IMG/VR virus record: IMGVR_UViG_3300042358_000005
Location: 54,935-118,934 of that record
Source of the DNA: a virus
Taxonomy: Duplodnaviria > Caudoviricetes
Strand: one strand, 5' to 3'
Length of the DNA: 64,000 nucleotides
Part shown: one piece after another, positions 35,043 to 64,000 of the stretch
Layout of the letters: each line of letters begins with the position of its first letter
Position numbering within the stretch: position 1 is the first letter of the stretch
Translations under genes and position numbers: made by a program
The notes under the pieces: generated by a model
Told to the model about the DNA's origin: nothing
The model's input: the letters and a program-made list of their open reading frames with translations, nothing else
The model's database searches: none

Positions 35043-36128
35043 TTAAAGTTGTGATTTATCAAATAAGTTAACTTGTTCTGGTTCAGAAACTACATCCTCT
35101 TCCACTTCTATTTCTTCTATAGGAAGATCAGACTCATTGATCTTAGCAATAATCTTTTCTCTTAGCTCATCATAGAACTCTGGATTATCAACCACCAACT
35201 GTTTGAATTCTTCTAAATCATACTTAGTTCCATCTACAGTCATAGTTTTACCATACTTACGTCCTAGTTCAAACTCATTAAGAAGAGCCATCATCTCATC
35301 AAGTTTATCAATACCTTTACCATACACTATCTCAAATTCCGATTTGCGATATGGAGGAGACATTTTATTCTTAATAGCTTTCAACTTAGTAATATTACCA
35401 TAAGTTACATCACCATCTTTAGCTAAGCTTCTAGACACTTCTATTCTTACATCACTATAGAATTTCAAAGCATGACCACCTTGAGTTGTTGTTGGATTAC
35501 CAAACATAACACCAATCTTCTCTCTATACTGACTAATAACAATTACACATACATTATGTTGCGATAGAGCCCCTTTAAGCTTTGGATAAGCATTACTATT
35601 CAATAAAGCCTTTCTACCGATTGTAGAGTCTCCTACATCACCATCAAGCATCTTTTTAGGAATAAGAGATGAATCTGAATCTATGATAACAAGATCAATC
35701 TCTCCAGTGTTAATCATTTCCATTGCAATGTTGAATCCTTCTTCACCACATGATGGTTGAGAGATTAACATTTTAGTTGTATCTACACCTAATTTCTTGA
35801 AATAGCTCTTATCAACAGCATGCTCACCATCTATATATAGAACAGTTCCACCTGCTTTCTGGCATTCAGCTGCAGCATGTCCACATATTGTAGATTTACC
35901 TGTACCCTCCCAGCCCATAAGTTCATAGAGTTTCCCCTTTACAAATCCTCCTACACCAAGAGTGATGTGATCAAAACCAATACTTCCTGTACTGATTACA
36001 TCATAATCTCCTCCTGCTTTAGAATCTAATGCTAAAATTGAACCAACACCATACTTTTTATTTAGGTTGTCGATTGCTGTTAGAAACTTGCTATCAGTTT
36101 CTTTTGTCACTGCTTTTTTTACTGCCAT
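35043..36128 (-). CDS. recA: RecA/UvsX recombinase
   Basis: ISTGS, GWEGTGKST, IDGEHA, SQYREKIGVMFGNP, GGHALKFYSDVR. Confidence 0.95.
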   Translation of the reverse strand: MAVKKAVTKETDSKFLTAIDNLNKKYGVGSILALDSKAGGDYDVISTGSIGFDHITLGVGGFVKGKLYELMGWEGTGKSTICGHAAAECQKAGGTVLYIDGEHAVDKSYFKKLGVDTTKMLISQPSCGEEGFNIAMEMINTGEIDLVIIDSDSSLIPKKMLDGDVGDSTIGRKALLNSNAYPKLKGALSQHNVCVIVISQYREKIGVMFGNPTTTQGGHALKFYSDVRIEVSRSLAKDGDVTYGNITKLKAIKNKMSPPYRKSEFEIVYGKGIDKLDEMMALLNEFELGRKYGKTMTVDGTKYDLEEFKQLVVDNPEFYDELREKIIAKINESDLPIEEIEVEEDVVSEPEQVNLFDKSQL

Positions 36129-53752: not shown

Positions 53753-54010
53753 TTATGTTTTAATTCTTAAACCGAACTGAAGGTCAAACCATCCAAATGT
53801 TTGTTCAGCTCTTGATTTGTTAAATTTAAAGATTTTTTTTAATAGAGGAATAGCATATGCTTTGAATTCCTCATGTTGTTCTGGTGTCATGGTATTGGTA
53901 TGATACCACATTGGATCACCACTCACGTCTAGTACTGTCTTACCAATCATGTTTAGCTGATATTCAACTAGATGATTAGAGATGTTCGTACGATTGATTT
54001 TAGCTTTCAT
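53753..54010 (-). CDS. Hypothetical protein
   Basis: 85-aa ORF coupled to polB. Confidence 0.6.
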   Translation of the reverse strand: MKAKINRTNISNHLVEYQLNMIGKTVLDVSGDPMWYHTNTMTPEQHEEFKAYAIPLLKKIFKFNKSRAEQTFGWFDLQFGLRIKT

Positions 54011-55968
54011 TAGAAAAGATTTAATTGATTAGGGATGTACACTGTTTTGATTCTTCTACCTTCAGTAGCTATTTTTGTTACTAACCTATTGGCTTTCTCA
54101 ATGTAATACTCATAGTTTACATTATCAACTTTACTACCTTTTGGTAAGAAATTACAAACTTTACACACCCATTCACCTGCTTCTATCTGACTTACTGCAG
54201 CAGCTCTGGTTTGACACTCTGGATTCTTAATCTTAAAGATCTTGTCTCCAGTATTAGACACATAATAGCGTATGAGTTTATCATACACTGTTTTTTCACC
54301 TGTGGATCTATTGGTTCCTTCATAATGAAAGCTCCTACTTGCTTTCTGTCTTATACAGAAATCATACAAATTAGTATGTGCACGAATAGTTTCCTCTACA
54401 GGTGTACCATCAACAAAATAACGTTCAAGAGCTATAGGGACAACCCTTGCACTCTTGTTCTTATGGAGCTCAAAGTCAGTAAGGAAATCACCTTTCTTCT
54501 TAATCTCTCCATTGGTCATAATTGCTAAATAGTCATTCACTGTACTAAAGATAATCTTTGAATAATCAGTTCTCTCTAACTCATATTGAGTGAGGTTACT
54601 CCATGCTTCATTAAGACTATGCATTAATGGAATTAGGTCTTTCTTAATTCTGATAGTTACACCATCTGTATTAGCAGAGATCACATGTATGCCATTCAAT
54701 TCATATTGTTCAATAAGCATCATTAGACTAAGTTCACCAGTTATTGTGGTGAACATAGTTAACTGCCTATCAAATATCCATGATTGCATATCAGATGACT
54801 TACCATATACAGAGTTAACTGCAAGTTTAAGTGCTCCAACAATTCCTTTAATCTTCTTGTCCTTCTTAGCGAATGGTTTAAGCTCCAATCTCTTCTCAAA
54901 CATCTGTTTGTATCCCCTAAGGAATTCTTTACCTAAATGAGCAGGAAACTGCCCATTATTGATGATGATAGCAGGATAATAAGAACTAACATCCCAATCG
55001 ATTATCTCGTACTCTTCATCAGCCTCAAACACTTTAGGTTTGTTCTCGGTGTGAAGACCACCTTTCATAAAAGAATATATATTTCCATGGAAATCTATAT
55101 GCTCTTTGAAATCATCTTGAAGACCTAGTACGGTCTTCTTCATTTTCTTTAAGAACTCAGTTAGCTGAGGTGTCTCAAACACAACATACTTAGCAATGCA
55201 ATTCTTAAGATCTATATTCTTTCTGAAATATCCTTTTCTAGGAAGTTCTCTATACTCAATTCCTTTCTCTGAGCAATAATACTTCTTGATCATTTCATCC
55301 CCTATCTTACTATCTGAATAGTTCATACATGGAATACCAAACTCAGCTTCAATATCTTGTCTCAGCTCAACTTGGTTGTTTCCTTTGTACAATGGATGAT
55401 CACAATCACCCAGGGTTATCTTATAGAATTCATAAGTTGCATCCACATCATTATAACAATAGTCAATGGTCATTTCAACCTCTTCTTTTGTCATATCAAC
55501 CTTAGTATGGTGTATAGGCATCTCTTCAATGTTCTCAAGATCCATCTCAAACTCTAATCTCTTTAAGCTTACCATACGATTCTTATTGTTGTAGTGCATC
55601 AAAGCAAATAAGTCTATTATTTTAAAACTTAAATCACTTTCTCTATATTTTGGAAAAACTTCATAATTAGCATCATGTATTGTATCTTGAGCAACTTGTG
55701 AAATTCTTGCACATATTTCAAGACCAGATAATTCATGCCATTTATCATAATTCCTAAGAATATGCTCAATCACTTGACTATCGAATCTTAATCCATTATA
55801 TGTTACAAAATAATGATCGTTCTTTTCTTCAAAGTATCCTGCCATACGATCTATTGTGTTTTTCCATCTACTAACTTCAAACTTACGATACTTGTTAGTT
55901 TGAGGATCATAACAAACACATAAAAAGTATTCTGCCATTGTTTCTATATCTGTTACTATAACATTCAT
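54010..55968 (-). CDS. polB: Family B DNA polymerase
   Basis: Exonuclease motifs DIE / YNGLRFD / YCYND; polymerase motifs DVSSYYP, KLAVNSVYGK, NTDG. Confidence 0.95.
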   Translation of the reverse strand: MNVIVTDIETMAEYFLCVCYDPQTNKYRKFEVSRWKNTIDRMAGYFEEKNDHYFVTYNGLRFDSQVIEHILRNYDKWHELSGLEICARISQVAQDTIHDANYEVFPKYRESDLSFKIIDLFALMHYNNKNRMVSLKRLEFEMDLENIEEMPIHHTKVDMTKEEVEMTIDYCYNDVDATYEFYKITLGDCDHPLYKGNNQVELRQDIEAEFGIPCMNYSDSKIGDEMIKKYYCSEKGIEYRELPRKGYFRKNIDLKNCIAKYVVFETPQLTEFLKKMKKTVLGLQDDFKEHIDFHGNIYSFMKGGLHTENKPKVFEADEEYEIIDWDVSSYYPAIIINNGQFPAHLGKEFLRGYKQMFEKRLELKPFAKKDKKIKGIVGALKLAVNSVYGKSSDMQSWIFDRQLTMFTTITGELSLMMLIEQYELNGIHVISANTDGVTIRIKKDLIPLMHSLNEAWSNLTQYELERTDYSKIIFSTVNDYLAIMTNGEIKKKGDFLTDFELHKNKSARVVPIALERYFVDGTPVEETIRAHTNLYDFCIRQKASRSFHYEGTNRSTGEKTVYDKLIRYYVSNTGDKIFKIKNPECQTRAAAVSQIEAGEWVCKVCNFLPKGSKVDNVNYEYYIEKANRLVTKIATEGRRIKTVYIPNQLNLF

Positions 55969-56714
55969 TTTTGTATTTTTAATGTTCTTAAATATGTACT
56001 TCTTCCTATAGAAGTTGTAATTGATGCAATGTTAACGTTTAATATATCTGTCAAAGGTCTAGAATCTATTGTTCCAATTAATCTATTAAAACAATCATAA
56101 ACTTTATATTTACCATTGCTTAGTTTGATTTGATCAAATATATTATTCCAATAAGCTTTTACATCTTCTACTGATTCATCTTCATCAAGAAATATAAACT
56201 TACTAGATTCTGAATCAATTAAGTTCTTTTTAAAAAACTTCACGTTCATCTTTCTATGAATGTTAGGAGCTACAGTATTGAAATGTTCAGCACACTTATA
56301 TAAATCAGTAAAGCTTTGATAAAACTCTCCATAAATAGTATAAACCATCACTTTTCTTTTAGGTGCAGAATTACTCATTCTTATTTTAGTTTCATTTGAA
56401 ACTGCACGCTTTCCTTCAGGACATGTAGGGTCAATGTTATAGCCATGATTTCTGTTGTGAGTGTCTAATAGATTACACCAATAGTTTTCTTGTGAATAAA
56501 TATGTTCAGGGTTACACTCTTCGAGTGTTTCAAATATAAAGTTATGTTCTCCATGTTTATTAAAAGAACTTTGTAGATGGGTATTATGATGTATACCTGC
56601 TCTAAGTTTCCATTTATGCATACATAATCTATTATATAGATCTATAGTTGCACCAATGTAACTTTTATTTGTAACTAAGTTTTGAATAATGTAAACTCCT
56701 GAACTCTTTCTCAT
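55965..56714 (-). CDS. GIY-YIG homing endonuclease
   Basis: SGVYII.N....YIG...R...H.N..LQ...E...GYN plus a NUMOD-like tail. Confidence 0.88.
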   Translation of the reverse strand: MRKSSGVYIIQNLVTNKSYIGATIDLYNRLCMHKWKLRAGIHHNTHLQSSFNKHGEHNFIFETLEECNPEHIYSQENYWCNLLDTHNRNHGYNIDPTCPEGKRAVSNETKIRMSNSAPKRKVMVYTIYGEFYQSFTDLYKCAEHFNTVAPNIHRKMNVKFFKKNLIDSESSKFIFLDEDESVEDVKAYWNNIFDQIKLSNGKYKVYDCFNRLIGTIDSRPLTDILNVNIASITTSIGRSTYLRTLKIQK

Positions 56715-56786: not shown

Positions 56787-57122
56787 TTATATCTTATTTT
56801 TTAAAAAGTTATTTATTTGGTCAAACAACCAACCTGTTAAATATGCCTCAGGTTCATCATTGTATCTATCTACCTCCATTGCGCAGTCTATGTATATAGA
56901 GTTCTTTAAATGCACTATTTCGTGTGCTATATTACTTAGATGAGTTGCGTCTGTAAACCCTATGATATAATGTCTATACTTACTTTCGTCTTTTAATGTA
57001 ACTGCTCCAAAATTAGATAGAGACTTTGTCTTATATTTTTTCTCAACATAAGACAAGTCTTTATCCAATATGATGGTTAACTTACAACAGTATATTGGTA
57101 TATTTATTGTGGTCTTTTCCAT
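56787..57122 (-). CDS. Small zincin-like metallopeptidase
   Basis: AHEIVH...DEPEAY; start set at the junction-repeat ATG (MEKTT). Confidence 0.7.
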   Translation of the reverse strand: MEKTTINIPIYCCKLTIILDKDLSYVEKKYKTKSLSNFGAVTLKDESKYRHYIIGFTDATHLSNIAHEIVHLKNSIYIDCAMEVDRYNDEPEAYLTGWLFDQINNFLKNKI

Positions 57123-57136
57123 AATCTTATTTGTTT

Positions 57137-57265
57137 TTAAATTAAAAATATTAAAAAAATTGTAAACCAAATAATCATTGGTTCTAATAACCCACCAAAC
57201 CAAAACCTATCGTAATATTCATAAAACTCATTTAACTGGTTTTTGATTTTTTTTAATGTTTTCAT
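57137..57265 (-). CDS. 42-aa peptide with C-terminal TM; absent from ORF track
   Basis: MKTLKKIKNQLNEFYEYYDRFWFGGLLEPMIIWFTIFLIFLI; starts and stops within junction repeats. Confidence 0.65.
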   Translation of the reverse strand: MKTLKKIKNQLNEFYEYYDRFWFGGLLEPMIIWFTIFLIFLI

Positions 57266-57269
57266 AATC

Positions 57270-57878
57270 TTATTTGTTTTTAAATTTAACAAACCAATCA
57301 TTAAAAGTAACTTCTATTCCATATTTATTTTCACAACAATAACCATAATAAAATGCTTTTTTCATATCTTGCTCACTATAACTTCTTTGTTTTTCTATAT
57401 CTAACTCATTAGCTATAAAATCAATTTCATCTTGTTTAGGTTCTTCTTTTGTAGGAATTTGTCTGTTATTTAATTTACAATAAATTAAATTCCACTCATC
57501 AATCATTTGTTTAGTTGCCTTTAAAAGATGAATTTCGTAATGTGAAAACATCAATGCAGTACTTCCTCTCGTAATAGGATTATCTTGGTTTACTTGTTTA
57601 CATTGTTTTATAATATAAACTTCTTCATAAGTAGGATTTTTCACAAACCATTCTAAAAACTCATCATCAATAGCTTGTACACCATCATCGATTAAGTCTT
57701 GGTCTGTTGTTAGGATGATTTTTTTATCAGTTTTAAAACTATTTGCTAACATACCATAAAGTTTTGTTTTAGTTTTAGTAATTGAATTATCTTCTTTGAA
57801 ATAACACCAATCTCCTTCTTTAATTTCTTCATCAGAAGTGATGTAGATTTTTTCTTGTAATACGTGTACGTTTTTCAT
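57270..57878 (-). CDS. Mosaic hypothetical protein (cassette)
   Basis: IYITSDEEIKEGDW...KIILTTD.DL..DGVQ.I.DEFLEWF...EEPKQ...RSYSEQD...FKNK. Confidence 0.75.
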   Translation of the reverse strand: MKNVHVLQEKIYITSDEEIKEGDWCYFKEDNSITKTKTKLYGMLANSFKTDKKIILTTDQDLIDDGVQAIDDEFLEWFVKNPTYEEVYIIKQCKQVNQDNPITRGSTALMFSHYEIHLLKATKQMIDEWNLIYCKLNNRQIPTKEEPKQDEIDFIANELDIEKQRSYSEQDMKKAFYYGYCCENKYGIEVTFNDWFVKFKNK

Positions 57879-57882
57879 AATC

Positions 57883-58086
57883 TTATTTGTTTTTAAATTG
57901 TTCGTTGTAGTATTGTTCTGCTTCTAACCATTCTGATTCAAGTGGTTTTTTAACTCTTGCATCAATAATCTGTTGCTTTTCCATTTCTTTGGCTTCTATT
58001 AGAATAGCTCTAATTAGAATTTGATTTCCGCTTGGAATTAAGTTTGCCAATCTATTTACTGCAAACTCTACTGCTGATTGTTTCAT
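57883..58086 (-). CDS. MKQxAVE / AKEMEKQQ family cassette protein
   Basis: MKQSAVEF...AKEMEKQQIIDA...AEQYYNEQFKNK; start set at the repeat ATG. Confidence 0.75.
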   Translation of the reverse strand: MKQSAVEFAVNRLANLIPSGNQILIRAILIEAKEMEKQQIIDARVKKPLESEWLEAEQYYNEQFKNK

Positions 58087-58119
58087 AATCTTATTTCTTT
58101 TTATATGTTTTATCAAATA

Positions 58120-58698
58120 GTTACTGGCTATGTTGCGAAACCTGATACCAAGTTTGAAAAATATTATCCGAAAAGATATTTATTTCAATTCCTAGTAATT
58201 TTAATCGTTTCACGCATTCCATTAAATGATTCCAGTCAGCATGAAAGTTTGGGAAATATTCTCTTTTTATAACTTGATTTCCTTCTTTCAAAACCCATCC
58301 ATTTGGGTATTTTTCTTTTTGTTCATTAAGCCATTTTTCTGCAATTACTTTTTGGCTTACAGTATCGTTATATCCGCAAGATTTAGGATGAAAACAAGAG
58401 CTTTCATCAGTTCCTACCATCCATTCAATTTCAGGTTCAAATCCTAAAAATTTTCCAATTTGGATATTTTTATCAATAATAGTTTTATAGCCATTTGATT
58501 CTTCAAATTCTCTAATAATTTTGTGGTCTAAATACATATTTTGTTTGTGGATTAAAAAACACAGCCAGTAACATATGCTACACAATAGCTGGGTTTAGGT
58601 TTAAATTTAAAGTTGGTTTTGCACCTTTTTAATATGTCATTATCCGAAGTCTGGGTGTGTGCTTGCCACAGCCATCGTGTAGCATCCGCCGTTATAGC
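58120..58698. mobile_element. Integron-like gene cassette with attC-like site
   Basis: GTTACTGGCTATGTT (58120-58134) is inverted relative to AACACAGCCAGTAAC (58558-58572). It is followed by a 17-bp inner IR (58575-58591 / 58669-58685) and GTTATAGC (58691-58698). Confidence 0.6.
58121..58537 (-). CDS. Hypothetical protein carried on the attC-like cassette
   Basis: MYLDHK...IGKFLG...FHADWNHLMEC; the stop TAA lies in GTAAC of the terminal IR. Confidence 0.7.
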   Translation of the reverse strand: MYLDHKIIREFEESNGYKTIIDKNIQIGKFLGFEPEIEWMVGTDESSCFHPKSCGYNDTVSQKVIAEKWLNEQKEKYPNGWVLKEGNQVIKREYFPNFHADWNHLMECVKRLKLLGIEINIFSDNIFQTWYQVSQHSQ

Positions 58699-58704
58699 TT
58701 ATGG

Positions 58705-59088
58705 CTATATTTCGTTTTCATCAGGAACTAATCTCAAATCAGAATCTAAAAACCACCATTTTTTCTGACTATAAATATCATTCATTTTAGAAACAAATTC
58801 TTCAATAATATCTGTTTTTTCTTTAAAACATAATTCCATATCGTGAGTATCATCATCAGGGTTTCCTTCTGTATCGTAATATCTATCAATAAGCCATTCA
58901 ATTACTTCTTCAGATGATATTGAAGCGGAATTAGATTCTTTGTTTGCTACACATAAATAACCGTGATGCGGTTCAAAATCTTCTTCCTCTAAATTGTCAA
59001 TGTTTTTTAATCCTTGCATTTCTAAATCTTCATATCCACAAAAAGTATAACCTTGTTTTAATGCTTCTTTTACTGTGATTGTATTCAT
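58705..59088 (-). CDS. Acidic hypothetical cassette protein
   Basis: Starts at the repeat ATG and ends next to the attC-like site. Confidence 0.7.
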   Translation of the reverse strand: MNTITVKEALKQGYTFCGYEDLEMQGLKNIDNLEEEDFEPHHGYLCVANKESNSASISSEEVIEWLIDRYYDTEGNPDDDTHDMELCFKEKTDIIEEFVSKMNDIYSQKKWWFLDSDLRLVPDENEI

Positions 59089-59102
59089 AATCTTATTTGT
59101 TT

Positions 59103-59231
59103 TTAAATTCTACAATCATTACATTCATCATTATCATCTAAGTCTGTATGAATATTACAATAACTTCCACAAGAAGGACATCTATCTTTGTGTTCAAACT
59201 CTGAACTCGGTTGACTATTTTTTGTTTTCAT
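59103..59231 (-). CDS. 42-aa CxxC...CxxC zinc-ribbon peptide; absent from ORF track
   Basis: MKTKNSQPSSEFEHKDRCPSCGSYCNIHTDLDDNDECNDCRI; stop lies inside the junction repeat. Confidence 0.6.
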   Translation of the reverse strand: MKTKNSQPSSEFEHKDRCPSCGSYCNIHTDLDDNDECNDCRI

Positions 59232-59676
59232 CTTTTACTATTATAAAGTTATTTATTTTCATCCATTTTAAAAACTGTGATACAGTCCAATCATCATTTG
59301 ATAGTTCTTGATGCTCTCCTTCTTCTTCAAACTGATTTATAAATCCTTGCAGATAATTGTACTTTTCAAGTGTTTCTTGTTTAGGTTCTTGTGGTCCACA
59401 GTCACAATATGTTGTATGACCACAATAGCATTTTGTTTGTTCTTCCATAACTTTTTTATTATTTAATCCTTTTATAAATGTATAACCTGTAGCAGTTGGT
59501 TTAAATCTTCTTTTATTCCATCCTTCAAAAATAGTTTCTACTAATGGATTCCATTGGCTTTCCCATACATTACCTGTTGTATTTTTAAGATGATTATATA
59601 TTTCTAAACAATCTTCTGCATCTTGTTTATATTCTGTTTTTAATTGCACTTGCAATCTATCCATTAATTTACCCAT
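59215..59676 (-). CDS. Mosaic hypothetical cassette protein (possibly two fused units)
   Basis: Internal MEEQTKCYCGHTTYCDCGP and EPKQE modules. Confidence 0.65.
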   Translation of the reverse strand: MGKLMDRLQVQLKTEYKQDAEDCLEIYNHLKNTTGNVWESQWNPLVETIFEGWNKRRFKPTATGYTFIKGLNNKKVMEEQTKCYCGHTTYCDCGPQEPKQETLEKYNYLQGFINQFEEEGEHQELSNDDWTVSQFLKWMKINNFIIVKDENKK

Positions 59677-59708
59677 AATTCTTATTTGTTTTTAAATTAT
59701 TACGTCTT

Positions 59709-59906
59709 TCATTGTCTTGTTGTGTTTTTATGATCTCTCCAATCTAACCAAAATCCTATTCCTACAATAATGTTCATACCAAATGAGGCAATAATTTCTG
59801 TTATGTCTTCATAGATATTAATAGATAGGTGGATATGTCCTACCATCCAAAAAGGCATAGCAAGATTATTTGATATCCACCTAACTAAATAATTTATAAA
59901 TTTCAT
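59709..59906 (-). CDS. Small membrane protein
   Basis: Two hydrophobic segments; TATCTTTG element at 59913-59920 upstream. Confidence 0.55.
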   Translation of the reverse strand: MKFINYLVRWISNNLAMPFWMVGHIHLSINIYEDITEIIASFGMNIIVGIGFWLDWRDHKNTTRQ

Positions 59907-59960
59907 AGCCTGCAAAGATAAGCAAAAATGTTAGAGATGCAAAATACACCTCTAACTTTT

Positions 59961-60431
59961 TTAGTTATTATAATAATATCTAACGTGATCAGAATATATT
60001 ACCACTCTACTTGGTGTACCAATGAATGATATATTTCCTGTAGGCACCTCAATACATATTTCAGCAGGTTCTTGTTGTGGTCCATCCCATATTTTTGAGA
60101 ATTCTTCTATTGTTAATTCTTCTTTACCAACAATAACATCATCTTGTTTTGCAAGAATAACTTCTTCCTTATCATTCACATCCCATAACTGTGGAGGAAT
60201 AACAGCAGTGTTTTCTTTCTTAGCTTTCTTAACACGAGGTCTCTTTGTTGGACCAACATAATCATTCTTGATTTTTCTTGTCTGTTTGGCTAGTTGAATA
60301 GCTTTGTAATAAATACCTGAAGGTGGTCTTCCCCATGTCTTAGATAACTCATCAGCAATAATGATAGCTGGTTTACCTGTTCTAATTTCTTGCTTGATCT
60401 CATTGATCTGCTTAGGTGTGTAATGTTTCAT
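59961..60431 (-). CDS. Hypothetical protein with N-terminal HTH/SANT-like segment
   Basis: HYTPKQI...IADELS...GRP.SGI. Confidence 0.55.
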   Translation of the reverse strand: MKHYTPKQINEIKQEIRTGKPAIIIADELSKTWGRPPSGIYYKAIQLAKQTRKIKNDYVGPTKRPRVKKAKKENTAVIPPQLWDVNDKEEVILAKQDDVIVGKEELTIEEFSKIWDGPQQEPAEICIEVPTGNISFIGTPSRVVIYSDHVRYYYNN

Positions 60432-60676
60432 AACTTTTTCAATTTGGTTTCTATAAATGTTCTAATTAACTCTCGGTTCATGTGCTTAGCACATTTTTTA
60501 TTAAATTCATCCTTAAGTATATCTTCGTACTTAGTCTTAGATATTTTATACTTAACTCCATTCTTGTGTTTTGGATCATTAGATTCCATTGTAATAGCTC
60601 TAGTCTTGATTGTTTCAATCACTGAATAAGCTATACATCTTTCATCTTTGAACCTTTTCTCTGTTAATACTTCCAT
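60428..60676 (-). CDS. Hypothetical protein
   Basis: Start set at MEVLTE. Confidence 0.55.
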   Translation of the reverse strand: MEVLTEKRFKDERCIAYSVIETIKTRAITMESNDPKHKNGVKYKISKTKYEDILKDEFNKKCAKHMNRELIRTFIETKLKKL

Positions 60677-60678
60677 AG

Positions 60679-61128
60679 TTAGTCTTCTTCTAATCCATCG
60701 TTTAATGTTACATCCCAATCATTAATATCTTCTTGATCAAGACTTAATACCACTTTATCCTCCATTATTACAGGAGTTTCTGTTTCTTCATCTATTTCTA
60801 TTGCTAGATAACCTTCCCATGCTCTTAGCACTAGATTAATATCATCTAGTGTGATGTCTCTTAGTTCATCTGTGTCTTCTCCTTCATCCCACCATCCAAT
60901 CTCTTCATCTGTAGCAAGAACATTACCATCTTCATCAATAATTAATAGTTCTACTGGTGCACCATGTTTAGCCATAAATTCATCTATGTCTTCAGGAATC
61001 TCTTCAAGTTGCCATAGTTCAACATATGGTTCAACAACACCAATAAATATCCTATTGACAAAGAGCATACCCTCCTCTAATTCAAGAGGAAGATAGCTTT
61101 TTAATACAATTTCTGCTGATGACCACAT
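60679..61128 (-). CDS. Highly acidic hypothetical protein
   Basis: 149 aa, Asp/Glu-rich. Confidence 0.65.
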   Translation of the reverse strand: MWSSAEIVLKSYLPLELEEGMLFVNRIFIGVVEPYVELWQLEEIPEDIDEFMAKHGAPVELLIIDEDGNVLATDEEIGWWDEGEDTDELRDITLDDINLVLRAWEGYLAIEIDEETETPVIMEDKVVLSLDQEDINDWDVTLNDGLEED

Positions 61129-61484
61129 TAGAAATCTCTTTTAGGTGCTGGTTCAGTGATTTGATACACACTATGTCCACTAGATAGTCTCAATAATATA
61201 TGAAGCTGTTCAGCTTCTAAATAGTCTATCTCTTTCTTTGAGTTAACACCAATGATTTCTATACCACTACCAGTATCTACTAGTTGCATAGCAACTGTCT
61301 TTCTAACATTATCAGCCCATTCAAAATCATCACTATAATATAGTGTATGAACTGTAGCTTCTTTTGTAGCTTCTAGTTTATGATAATCATATTCATGTGT
61401 ACCATTAATATACACTTCTTCTCTGTATAACACATCACTTGTGTTATCAATTACATCTTGTATTTCTTTCTTTAATGTTGCCAT
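61128..61484 (-). CDS. Hypothetical protein
   Basis: 118-aa ORF. Confidence 0.65.
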   Translation of the reverse strand: MATLKKEIQDVIDNTSDVLYREEVYINGTHEYDYHKLEATKEATVHTLYYSDDFEWADNVRKTVAMQLVDTGSGIEIIGVNSKKEIDYLEAEQLHILLRLSSGHSVYQITEPAPKRDF

Positions 61485-61489
61485 GTTAT

Positions 61490-61927
61490 TTATTTTTTAC
61501 GATTATTACGCATTAGTTCTCCCTTTGAATGTACACCTCTACTATATTTATTTACAATTATCTTATTAGTACCACTAGTGAAATTCTTTTCTTTTTTATC
61601 TAATCCTGTTAGTCTCTTTCTTTCAACTTCAGATAGTTCATTGTACTGATAGCTATCTAATAAATTCATTTGACCGTTTATATCTTTCCATTCTTCAGAT
61701 GTAACTTTTCCTGGCTTAGCTATTCTAAACTCAGAAGGTATGTTTAATTCATCAAGAAGATCATCAATAAAAGATATTCTATCACTATTGAAATAATAAT
61801 ACCTCAATAGTGATTTACCTCTACTGTGCTGAGAGTCTAATACATTCTGCACTGTAAGATCATGATACTGTCCAAACTTAAGAGTTGACTTTCTAGTCAA
61901 GGTTCTTAGTAGAGTTACATCAGACAT
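61490..61927 (-). CDS. Hypothetical protein
   Basis: LRTLTRKSTLKFGQY motif. Confidence 0.65.
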   Translation of the reverse strand: MSDVTLLRTLTRKSTLKFGQYHDLTVQNVLDSQHSRGKSLLRYYYFNSDRISFIDDLLDELNIPSEFRIAKPGKVTSEEWKDINGQMNLLDSYQYNELSEVERKRLTGLDKKEKNFTSGTNKIIVNKYSRGVHSKGELMRNNRKK

Positions 61928-61929
61928 TG

Positions 61930-62163
61930 TTAATAACCTGCTAGTTTAGATATTGCACCCTCTTGACTTAATACATAAGCAAGATCTGATTCTTGTTTAG
62001 GTGTAAGAGTTTTGATTGTAGATATCAAATTGATTCTACTGTATGTAATGTCTTCACCATAGATGTTTGTAACATTACTTCCAATCTCTTTTATTTTATT
62101 GTAATTAAACACTGTTACAGGTTCACCATCTGTGTCCTGCCATTTTCCATTTACTATTTTCAT
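61930..62163 (-). CDS. Hypothetical protein
   Basis: 77-aa ORF. Confidence 0.6.
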   Translation of the reverse strand: MKIVNGKWQDTDGEPVTVFNYNKIKEIGSNVTNIYGEDITYSRINLISTIKTLTPKQESDLAYVLSQEGAISKLAGY

Positions 62164-62168
62164 AACTT

Positions 62169-62408
62169 TTAGTCTTTTTGATTTTCTATAACTTTCTCTA
62201 TAATTTCATCATATATGGCATCACTAATCAAATCAATGATTTCATTACCATCTACTTGTACTGATTCTAATTCAAACTCAGCATAACTTCCTGGATATCC
62301 TTCCATGTTACCATCATACATTTCTCTTGGTTCTTCTGGATGATATGTACCACTCACTGTTAGATATACACCACCTACGGTGATACCTATTTCTATTTCT
62401 TTACCCAT
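62169..62408 (-). CDS. Acidic hypothetical protein
   Basis: 79 aa; starts at a junction-repeat ATG. Confidence 0.65.
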   Translation of the reverse strand: MGKEIEIGITVGGVYLTVSGTYHPEEPREMYDGNMEGYPGSYAEFELESVQVDGNEIIDLISDAIYDEIIEKVIENQKD

Positions 62409-62413
62409 AATTC

Positions 62414-62713
62414 TTATTTCTTTTTAAATTGTTCAAACCATTCTTTAGGGCTTAACGATTTTTTAATTAATAAACGATAGTTTGCATAATCATTCATATC
62501 CTCCTCACTATAACTTCTTTCTTGTTGCTTATTTTTGTAAATAGCTTTTAAAATATCTCTAACATCATCTGGACTAAAGTTATTCTTGTCTTGTTCTTGT
62601 TGTTGAAGTTCTCTCCCACTTATAAAGTCAGTAAGCCATCTTACTTTATCATTACCATTAATATCTGTTCTTGATATAAGTTGGGCTAATTTTTCAATAT
62701 CTACTGTTGTCAT
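62414..62713 (-). CDS. Mosaic cassette protein
   Basis: MTTVDIE...ERSYSEED...EWFEQFKKK; start set at the repeat ATG. Confidence 0.7.
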   Translation of the reverse strand: MTTVDIEKLAQLISRTDINGNDKVRWLTDFISGRELQQQEQDKNNFSPDDVRDILKAIYKNKQQERSYSEEDMNDYANYRLLIKKSLSPKEWFEQFKKK

Positions 62714-62717
62714 AATC

Positions 62718-62945
62718 TTATTTGTTTTTAAATTGTTGTAAAACACTATTCTGTTTTTGTTCATAATCAATTCCTTCAAAAATTCCTTTAAGTCTTGCAT
62801 CAAAAATATGTTGCTTTTCCATTTCTTTTGCTTGTTCACATATTTCAAATCTTTGAAAATGAAATTCTGCTTTTGATATTTCATCATTAAAAAGTTTTGA
62901 TACTAATATTCCAATTTGTTCTGTTTGAAATTCTACTGCTGTCAT
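62718..62945 (-). CDS. TAVE / AKEMEKQ family cassette protein
   Basis: MTAVEF...EQAKEMEKQHIFDA...QQFKNK. Confidence 0.75.
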   Translation of the reverse strand: MTAVEFQTEQIGILVSKLFNDEISKAEFHFQRFEICEQAKEMEKQHIFDARLKGIFEGIDYEQKQNSVLQQFKNK

Positions 62946-62959
62946 AATCTTATTTGTTT

Positions 62960-63061
62960 TTAAATTATACCTTTATTAAAAAGTATTGTAATGATAATAC
63001 AAATTAAAATTCCAATAGAAACCCCATAAAAAAATGTACTAATTTTTTGTATTTTATTCAT
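62960..63061 (-). CDS. 33-aa single-TM peptide; absent from ORF track
   Basis: MNKIQKISTFFYGVSIGILICIIITILFNKGII, bounded by two repeats. Confidence 0.6.
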   Translation of the reverse strand: MNKIQKISTFFYGVSIGILICIIITILFNKGII

Positions 63062-63065
63062 AATC

Positions 63066-63290
63066 TTATTTGTTTTTAAATTGTTCGTTGTAGTATTGTT
63101 CTGCATAAAATCTATCAGACATAACTATTTTATCGCTTTCATATTTTCCATTTTTATAAGCATCAATTATCTGTTGCTTTTCCATTTCTTTGGCTTGTTC
63201 AAAACTAAATTGAACTACTTCAAGTAAATCTCCATCGTGTTCAAAATGTGATTTTAAATTGTTGTATAACCATTCTACTGCTGTTTTCAT
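63066..63290 (-). CDS. MKTAVEW / AKEMEKQQ family cassette protein
   Basis: MKTAVEWL...EQAKEMEKQQIIDA...AEQYYNEQFKNK. Confidence 0.75.
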   Translation of the reverse strand: MKTAVEWLYNNLKSHFEHDGDLLEVVQFSFEQAKEMEKQQIIDAYKNGKYESDKIVMSDRFYAEQYYNEQFKNK

Positions 63291-63301
63291 ATTATTTGTT
63301 T

Positions 63302-63442
63302 TTAAGTTTTTTTGCCTTTAACTCCAATCATCCATCCAAATACTATTGGAGCAAATCTTCCTAATGGTATGTGTAAAATTTCACTTGTATTCCAAATACA
63401 ACTACCTATAAACTGTAATAGTGTTTCTTCTTTCCAAATCAT
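63302..63442 (-). CDS. 46-aa hydrophobic peptide; absent from ORF track
   Basis: MIWKEETLLQFIGSCIWNTSEILHIPLGRFAPIVFGWMIGVKGKKT, bounded by two repeats. Confidence 0.6.
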   Translation of the reverse strand: MIWKEETLLQFIGSCIWNTSEILHIPLGRFAPIVFGWMIGVKGKKT

Positions 63443-63576
63443 ATCTTATTTGTTTTAAAATTAATTTTCATCTTTAAAAAACATTAATATTTTATTTGTT
63501 ATGGCACAATAAATGTAAGTTCCAAAACCTTTAATTCCGAAACCATAGTCAAAATATACTCTTTGTCCTTTCATAA

Positions 63577-63660
63577 CTAATCCTTATTCCAATACCAAGC
63601 AAACCAAACTATAAATAATATAATTCCTATTGCTATTCCAATAATAATACCTAATACCAT
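63577..63660 (-). CDS. 27-aa single-TM peptide; absent from ORF track
   Basis: MVLGIIIGIAIGIIIFIVWFAWYWNKD; starts at the repeat ATG. Confidence 0.55.
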   Translation of the reverse strand: MVLGIIIGIAIGIILFIVWFAWYWNKD

Positions 63661-63663
63661 ATC

Positions 63664-63891
63664 TTATTTGTTTTTAAATATTTCTAATAATTCAGAATAA
63701 CTACATTCATCATTTTTTGAATAAAAATCTTCTGTTAAGTTTTCTAACCATTTGCCAAACTCAATAGCAAATTTATCTTGTTGTTGCTTTTCCATTTCTT
63801 TGGCTTGTTCAATAATTTCACCGTAAGTTAATTTAGATGATAAGATGTTTCTAAGTTGTTCTTCTAACCATTCTACTGCTGTTTGTTTCAT
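63664..63891 (-). CDS. MKQTAVEW / AKEMEKQQ family cassette protein
   Basis: MKQTAVEWL...EQAKEMEKQQ...IFKNK. Confidence 0.75.
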   Translation of the reverse strand: MKQTAVEWLEEQLRNILSSKLTYGEIIEQAKEMEKQQQDKFAIEFGKWLENLTEDFYSKNDECSYSELLEIFKNK

Positions 63892-63902
63892 AATCTTATT
63901 TT

Positions 63903-63986
63903 TTATTTTAAAAGGTTTACTAAAATCATTACTACTAAAGATGTTAAAAGTCCAAGTATGTAACCATAGATTAATTTATTTTCCAT
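63903..63986 (-). CDS. 27-aa single-TM peptide; absent from ORF track
   Basis: MENKLIYGYILGLLTSLVVMILVNLLK, bounded by two repeats. Confidence 0.55.
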   Translation of the reverse strand: MENKLIYGYILGLLTSLVVMILVNLLK

Positions 63987-64000
63987 AATCTTATTTGTTT

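Follow-up and report, generated by a model that had tools for sequence, protein, structure and literature searches.

How do several small phage genes come to carry near-identical stretches of DNA next to segments that cannot be aligned at all? This question is raised by the last 64 kb (64,000 nucleotides, hereafter the window) of the 118,934-bp IMG/VR virus record IMGVR_UViG_3300042358_000005, which ends in a minus-strand array of tightly packed small genes running from position 64000 down to about 56700. Four genes of this array, designated here p63b, p63a, p62 and p58 (Table 1), are paralogs of one phage protein family of about 70 amino acids, in which constant blocks (C1, C2 and C3) alternate with variable segments (V1 and V2). 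Most probably, recombination in the constant blocks moves V1 and V2 independently of each other throughout this very large helical family, and a combinatorial repertoire results. A first-pass annotation of the window had proposed such constant-variable-constant-variable shuffling below the level of the gene. The proposal is borne out by the reassortment of V1 and V2, by four-gamete quartets, by DNA switches at the constant blocks and by natural chimeras in independent assemblies.

Alignment of the family members reveals their common build. C1 reads M(KQ)TAVEWL and is encoded by ATG-AAA-CAA-ACA-GCA-GTA-GAA-TGG-TTA. V1 (14-30 amino acids) separates it from C2, EQAKEMEKEQIIDA, which occupies 42 nt at the DNA level. 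V2 (8-22 amino acids) then leads to C3, AEQYYNETFK, followed by two residues, the stop codon and a conserved stop/start junction with the next gene. The constant motifs are helical and rich in Lys and Glu. The AlphaFold2 model of p63a is all-helical, with helices at residues 4-17 and 22-72 and a mean predicted local distance difference test (pLDDT) score of 83, in line with the earlier description of a small helical protein family.

The repeated DNA blocks quoted in the first-pass annotation were all recovered at their positions by exact-match search. The 20-mer tgttgcttttccatttcttt (AKEMEKQ) occurs at 57971, 62809, 63172 and 63782, the TAVEW 17-mer ccattctactgctgttt at 63270 and 63868, the RSYSE 17-mer ctcactataacttcttt at 57372 and 62504, and the EPKQ block ttgtttaggttctt at 57432 and 59377, with a maximal exact match of 16 nt. 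Over C3 and the adjoining junction, p58 and p63a share 48 identical nucleotides. Chance levels were estimated by simulating the 7.3-kb region with a first-order Markov model. Repeated 20-mers had a simulated mean of 0.00 pairs versus 199 observed, and chance repeats of 17, 16 and 14 nt were present in 4%, 11% and 62% of the simulations, respectively. The AKEMEKQ, TAVEW and AEQYYNEQFKNK/junction blocks lie far above chance. The RSYSE block is borderline as DNA and is retained on account of the protein module that two C-termini have in common. EPKQ was rejected as a constant DNA module, since its 14-16-nt match is no better than chance in the simulations. EPKQ/EPK-type linkers do reappear beside module boundaries in relatives, and may represent a short linker motif. 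The blocks had also been described as lying in otherwise dissimilar genes. This holds for V1 and V2, which are unalignable, but not for the genes as wholes, since the four that carry AKEMEKQ are paralogs of a single family.

Conservation of the blocks extends to synonymous positions. In every pair of paralogs within the window, identical residues are encoded by identical codons about 3 standard deviations more often than codon usage predicts, and the codons in common include the rare GCC, AAG and TAC-TAC-AAC. In a codon table covering 119 distinct genes on over 80 contigs, the Ala of AKEMEK is GCC in 81% of the family (background 10%), the C2 Gln is CAG in 82% (27%) and the C2 Glu is GAG in 84% (35%). 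Likewise, YYN of C3 is TAC TAC AAC in 72-82% and TAV of C1 is ACA GCA GTA in 88-97%, both against a background of about 40%. DNA-level conservation extends to the most frequent V1 type, though this is joined to many V2s. Such extreme synonymous conservation invites the explanation that the blocks are maintained as DNA for some other cause (for instance as a nuclease target, a translation signal, or a site of regulation or protein binding), with shuffling an incidental by-product rather than a selected device. The gene-junction repeat described below, clearly a DNA- or RNA-level element that is read in more than one frame, speaks for the same explanation. RNA structure was rejected as the cause, since neither the mRNA fold (z = 0.11) nor block-block duplexes (z from -0.3 to 0.6) depart from expectation and an Rfam search returned no match. 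Sigma-70-like promoter matches are not enriched either (36 versus 46.7 in shuffled sequences). Moreover, the explanation leaves the reassortment of V1 and V2 unaccounted for and merely reinterprets it. We consider it rather unlikely.

The alternative that the first-pass annotation had named as fatal to its proposal is that the four genes are ordinary diverged paralogs, the blocks being family motifs and the V stretches having diverged in place without exchange. The genes are indeed paralogs, the blocks coincide with the residues that the family conserves, and the biased codons of a low-GC genome raise DNA identity at conserved residues. In that case, however, V1 and V2 should have congruent histories. 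In a first sample of 222 non-redundant members, the identities of V1 and V2 are uncorrelated (r = 0.03), unrelated V segments are no more alike than shuffled sequences, and 21 V2 types are each paired with 2-5 unrelated V1 types. When the over-sampled V1 class of p63a is excluded, 28 of the 29 pairs with V2 at least 60% identical have V1 at most 30% identical; conversely, of 11 pairs whose V1 is similar, 10 have unrelated V2. Enlarging the sample by 150 cluster representatives, to 446 combinations, leaves the picture unchanged (r = 0.006), with unrelated V1 (at most 30% identical) in 226 of the 293 pairs with similar V2. A four-gamete test found no cycle among the 222 sequences and four complete quartets in the enlarged sample. 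Given these quartets, tree-like divergence is insufficient unless segments of 15-20 amino acids arose independently. In these comparisons, the two kinds of segment are reassorted almost without restriction. The histories of the segments, each too short to give an informative tree, are incongruent, the codons in common exceed the codon-usage expectation by far, and, as detailed next, nucleotide identity collapses within a few bases at C2. Divergence in place is thus very unlikely.

At the DNA level, the switches can be located. The first-pass annotation had suggested searching collected homologues for breakpoints at the modules, and natural chimeras of the window's own paralogs do switch at the constant blocks. 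One such gene (P0070; L085:4415-4630) is 92-100% identical to p63b in its 5' half and 97-100% identical to p63a in its 3' half, the two matches overlapping within the 31-nt C2 block common to both paralogs. Removal of 610 bp between 63782 and 63172 would be expected to give exactly this product. The C2-V2-C3-junction tract of p63a (63056-63202) is found at 97-100% nucleotide identity behind three unrelated V1s. In two of the genes concerned, P0115 and P0026, it follows two other V1s and is 100% identical, and identity to p63a stops just past the junction ATG, indicating that the tract behaves as a minicassette of about 130-145 nt. Similarly, a gene of contig L005 combines the 5' half of one L008 paralog (paralog 1) with the 3' half of another (paralog 2). 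In strain L170, which is near-identical to the window (100% over 8.9 kb), a fifth paralog lies just upstream of the window's contig end. Its V1 differs from that of p62, and the 3' 128 nt of p62 (62711-62838) are 98% identical to it. L170 itself (120,626 bp) continues beyond the window end (L170:1-973) with a 147-amino-acid HNH-motif gene, the fifth paralog and other genes. Family-wide, 29 gene pairs have only V2 DNA in common, 51 only V1 and 17 both; identity changes where the 42-nt C2 block begins and ends. Overall, it falls from about 100% to random at the constant blocks, and at C2 it does so within a few bases.

Could the mosaics be products of short-read assembly, with different paralogs or strains joined at the repeated blocks? 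All the comparison sequences are short-read metagenome assemblies. Furthermore, the record starts and finishes within the same 17-22-nt junction repeat (window 63979-64000; genome positions 1-19), indicating that the assembly broke, or closes, at this repeat, and repeats do therefore break assembly graphs. However, the blocks (20-48 nt) are below the typical read length and the final k-mer length (contig names read k141), and how assemblers behave at repeats shorter than both is well established. In addition, the same chimeras were recovered from different samples and by different assemblers (P0070 from 2 samples, P0115 from 2 European Nucleotide Archive (ENA) assemblies, P0026 on 4 contigs), while the window's own arrangement is found at 100% identity in five other contigs. 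Block length and recurrence together make an assembly artefact highly improbable. Targeted hypermutation of V1 and V2 by a diversity-generating retroelement, which hypervariable stretches between invariant flanks might call to mind, can be practically dismissed: the 118.9-kb genome contains no reverse transcriptase (RVT_1), and the V segments are of unequal length and unalignable rather than point-mutated, identical ones reappearing in different contexts.

We propose that the exchanges occur by homologous recombination within the constant blocks, over 20-50 nt. It could take two forms. Within one genome, paralogs could undergo unequal exchange or gene conversion, yielding the deletion-type chimeras and the duplicated 3' tracts; in the other form, the exchange would be between co-infecting phages. 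Either would move V1 and V2 independently. The engine may be RecA-type homologous recombination, for which the phage's own RecA homologue (Pfam RecA, E = 9e-86) is the candidate, or template switching during replication. Several considerations weigh against this proposal. The assignment of a recombinase is indirect. RecT and ERF were searched for and are absent from the whole genome, and RecA normally prefers homologies longer than 20-50 nt. Some other role at the DNA level, instead of or besides recombination, could account for the conserved synonymous sites of the blocks. The chimeric joins, all taken from metagenome assemblies, are not directly checkable from reads, unlikely as an artefact appears. 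Finally, searches for relatives gave no lead to a function: the four paralogs and the neighbouring cassette proteins have no above-threshold match in Pfam-A, PHROGs v4 or NCBIfam 20, a sequence profile search of the PDB found no relative of the family, and Foldseek found no match to the p63a model in the PDB at E ≤ 0.001.

What the shuffled segments might do is a separate matter. A constant helical scaffold would be aimed at variable host targets, and V1 and V2 would determine what it binds. The diversified segments, the presence of several copies and the location in the early array are consistent with a role in an arms race, for example as putative anti-defence or host-takeover proteins, as the first-pass annotation had supposed. 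A more ambitious reading, which we offer tentatively and think possible but doubtful, is that the family forms a phage-borne repertoire of combinatorial binders, with two specificity segments on one scaffold and with the identity of the three blocks, synonymous sites included, itself selected to provide recombination linkers. If so, phage populations could quickly re-deal V1 and V2 against variable host targets such as those of defence or takeover, and the family would do inside the cell, with early genes, what minicassette variation does for adhesins or pilins.

The family is very large and wholly uncharacterised. Among word-sharing candidates, p63a has 762 relatives, many of them full-length at 60-75% identity. 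A profile built from 138 members matches 9,979 representatives of 50%-identity clusters at E ≤ 0.001 (2,855 at E ≤ 1e-10), and the family is present in at least 397-475 stretches of viral contigs. Its neighbours in the ESM Atlas are exclusively unnamed viral clusters. With some 10,000 clusters in aquatic Bacteroidota phages, it ranks among the larger phage protein families that lack annotation. It also carries a warning for annotation, since clustering at 50% identity breaks a single family into thousands of pseudo-families. A tblastn search with p63a found no match among 50,697 GenBank phages, but a more consensus-like member used as query did reach cultured Elemovirus (Flavobacterium) phages. 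In these, the relatives adjoin a primase/helicase gene, and the host is Flavobacterium sp. BAL314. Matches in bacterial metagenome-assembled genomes are mostly to Bacteroidota. Family genes sit in early or replication-side arrays of Bacteroidota phages, mostly of Flavobacteriia. Multiple copies are frequent (2-6 paralogs, often in tandem, at 57 of 139 loci); the window has four and L170 five.

Phage mosaicism is commonly described gene by gene. To our knowledge, exchange within genes at conserved motifs has been documented in few cases, of which gp38 of the T-even phages is the classic one, and the present family provides a clear fresh example of the same logic. In the gp38 adhesins of T2/T6-type phages, hypervariable segments alternate with conserved glycine-rich motifs that serve as recombination points (PMC3157838). 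This conserved-motif/hypervariable-segment design is the closest analogue, since in both cases hypervariable segments of a small phage protein are exchanged independently between conserved motifs. In its design, the family works like gp38 without being a member of it. It has no sequence or fold relation to gp38 and lacks glycine-rich motifs. Its proteins are all-helical, of about 70 amino acids, with two variable segments and three blocks, and they are multi-copy and often tandem. Their genes lie beside those of a GIY-YIG endonuclease and a DNA polymerase rather than in a tail-fibre locus, and encode no virion adhesin.

A second comparison is with the promoter-early stem-loop (PeSL) cassettes of T4-type phages. 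PeSLs are intergenic units made of a sigma-70-like early promoter and a stem-loop terminator, repeated between small non-essential early genes, and through them whole genes are inserted, deleted and replaced (PMC2839356, PMC4122927). Like them, the junction repeat bounds a 3.3-kb gene-level indel between close strains. Unlike them, it is a 22-nt stop/start overlap devoid of stem-loop or sigma-70 promoter signal, and in the family exchange also occurs within genes. The family design belongs to neither system, as it has no homology to them, lies in another genomic context and uses a junction lacking promoter/terminator structure. Minicassette antigenic variation, as in Neisseria pilE/pilS and similar systems, relies on gene conversion among many copies of variable minicassettes flanked by conserved blocks. 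The resemblance lies in short conserved DNA blocks that flank variable cassettes and in the combinatorial variants that result. In contrast, pilE/pilS consists of an expression site and silent copies in cellular pathogens, whereas the phage copies all look expressed, and exchange is observed at the population level among phages. An integron-type cassette array was rejected, since the whole genome has no tyrosine recombinase (no match to the Phage_integrase family) and the junction repeat is not an attC-like imperfect palindrome. The cultured Elemovirus relatives offer a defined, testable system for measuring short-homology recombination in phages, and a way to ask what a diversified early protein of 70 amino acids binds.

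Gene-level rearrangement centres on the 22-nt junction repeat, which has seven exact copies plus variants in the array against none expected (Table 1) and forms no stem-loop. The FKNK-stop that closes one gene and the ATG that opens the following one both come from this repeat. After 62960-63061 and 59103-59231, its stop is used in another frame (ATT TAA). Use in more than one frame indicates a DNA-level element; the FKNK "module" of the first-pass annotation is its by-product, corresponding to the 3' part of the repeat and not to a protein module. Another strain, L171, lacks 59110-62411 (3.3 kb, 13 small genes) but otherwise matches the window at 100% identity. Both ends of this indel lie at junction-repeat copies, and L171 has a 56-nt AT-rich spacer (L171:2099-2154) in place of the block. 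L171 also carries different genes at the window-end junction, which marks that junction as a population-level breakpoint.

Mosaicism extends beyond the TAVEW family. The N-domain of the 202-amino-acid cassette protein is found elsewhere, in longer relatives, fused to a TAVEW family domain, while other long relatives consist of two family members joined head to tail by a read-through junction. The 202- and 99-amino-acid proteins have in common a C-terminal RSYSE(E/Q)DM...WF.(Q/K)FK(K/N)K module, which is also terminal in other phage proteins. The first 120 or so nucleotides of the 99-amino-acid gene are 96-100% identical to a gene of contig L088, beyond which, after a QQQ run, the 3' part is unrelated. 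The 153-amino-acid protein and a protein of 92 amino acids in L171 (L171:241-519) both contain a cysteine-rich module, CYCGHTT(Y/R)CDCGP. The L171 protein combines it with a GAKWQ...YSKEEV...WFQQFKNK tail, a further mosaic at the module level.

Table 1. Coordinates of the paralogs, constant blocks, junction repeats and related genes in the window
Feature	Position	Strand	Remarks
p63b, 75 aa	63664-63891	-	C1 MKQTAVEWL, V1 LEEQLRNILSSKLTYGEII, C2 EQAKEMEKQQ, divergent C-terminal half ending SYSELLEIFKNK
p63a, 74 aa	63066-63290	-	Canonical member; C1, V1 type LYNNLKSHFEHDGDLLEVVQFSF, C2, V2 YKNGKYESDKIVMSDRFY, C3 AEQYYNEQFKNK
p62, 75 aa	62718-62945	-	MTAVEF, long V1, C2 EQAKEMEKQHIFDA, V2, QQFKNK
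p58, 67 aa	57883-58086	-	MKQSAVEF, V1, C2 IEAKEMEKQQIIDA, V2, C3 AEQYYNEQFKNK
C1 block (TAVEWL) of p63a	63267-63286	-	20 nt shared exactly with 63865-63884 in p63b
C2 block of p63a	63172-63202	-	31 nt shared exactly with 63782-63812; natural p63b::p63a chimera crosses over here
C2 block of p63b	63782-63812	-	Exact match to p63a block
C2 block of p58	57968-57995	-	28 nt identical to 63169-63196
C2 block of p62	62809-62828	-	20-nt exact core
C3 block (AEQYYNEQFKNK) + 22-nt gene junction of p63a	63057-63104	-	48/48 identical to 57874-57921
C3 block + junction of p58	57874-57921	-	Exact match
22-nt gene-junction repeat TTTAAAAACAAATAAGATTATG	57120-57141	-	Further exact copies at 57263, 57876, 59086, 62711, 62943, 63059
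Junction repeat variants	58084, 63657, 63889, 62411, 59680		Partial copy at contig end, 63979-64000
202-aa cassette protein	57270-57878	-	N-domain MKNVHVLQE...LEWFVKNP, EEPKQ linker, C-terminal RSYSEQDM...WFVKFKNK
99-aa cassette protein	62414-62713	-	C-terminal RSYSEEDM...WFEQFKKK module
153-aa protein	59215-59676	-	Second EPKQ copy (59375-59390) beside CYCGHTTYCDCGP module; DNA match at chance level
RecA homologue	35043-36128	-	Candidate recombinase for the exchanges

The whole record is graded complete by CheckV. The GC content is 26-35% over most of the window, rising to 40% at 10-16 kb, and is about 27% in the cassette region. The array leads into the GIY-YIG endonuclease gene (55965-56714) and then the DNA polymerase gene (54010-55968), with helicase, primase-like and RecA genes further downstream. 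The array contains a sole strong intrinsic-terminator-like hairpin (59930-59956, minus strand; 12 pairs and a T-run), which may split it into two transcription units. A 167-nt intergenic stretch (58538-58704) shares 83% identity with phages FPSV-D15, D35 and D17 of Flavobacterium psychrophilum. It folds as a long imperfect hairpin (z = -2.7) that has no Rfam match; that it might be an integron attC site is argued against by the absence of an integrase from the genome. Micro-proteins of 27-42 amino acids, each a hydrophobic single helix, occupy slots between the paralogs (63903-63984, 63578-63661, 62960-63061 and 57137-57265). A neighbouring gene of 46 amino acids (63302-63442) has a homologue in L088.

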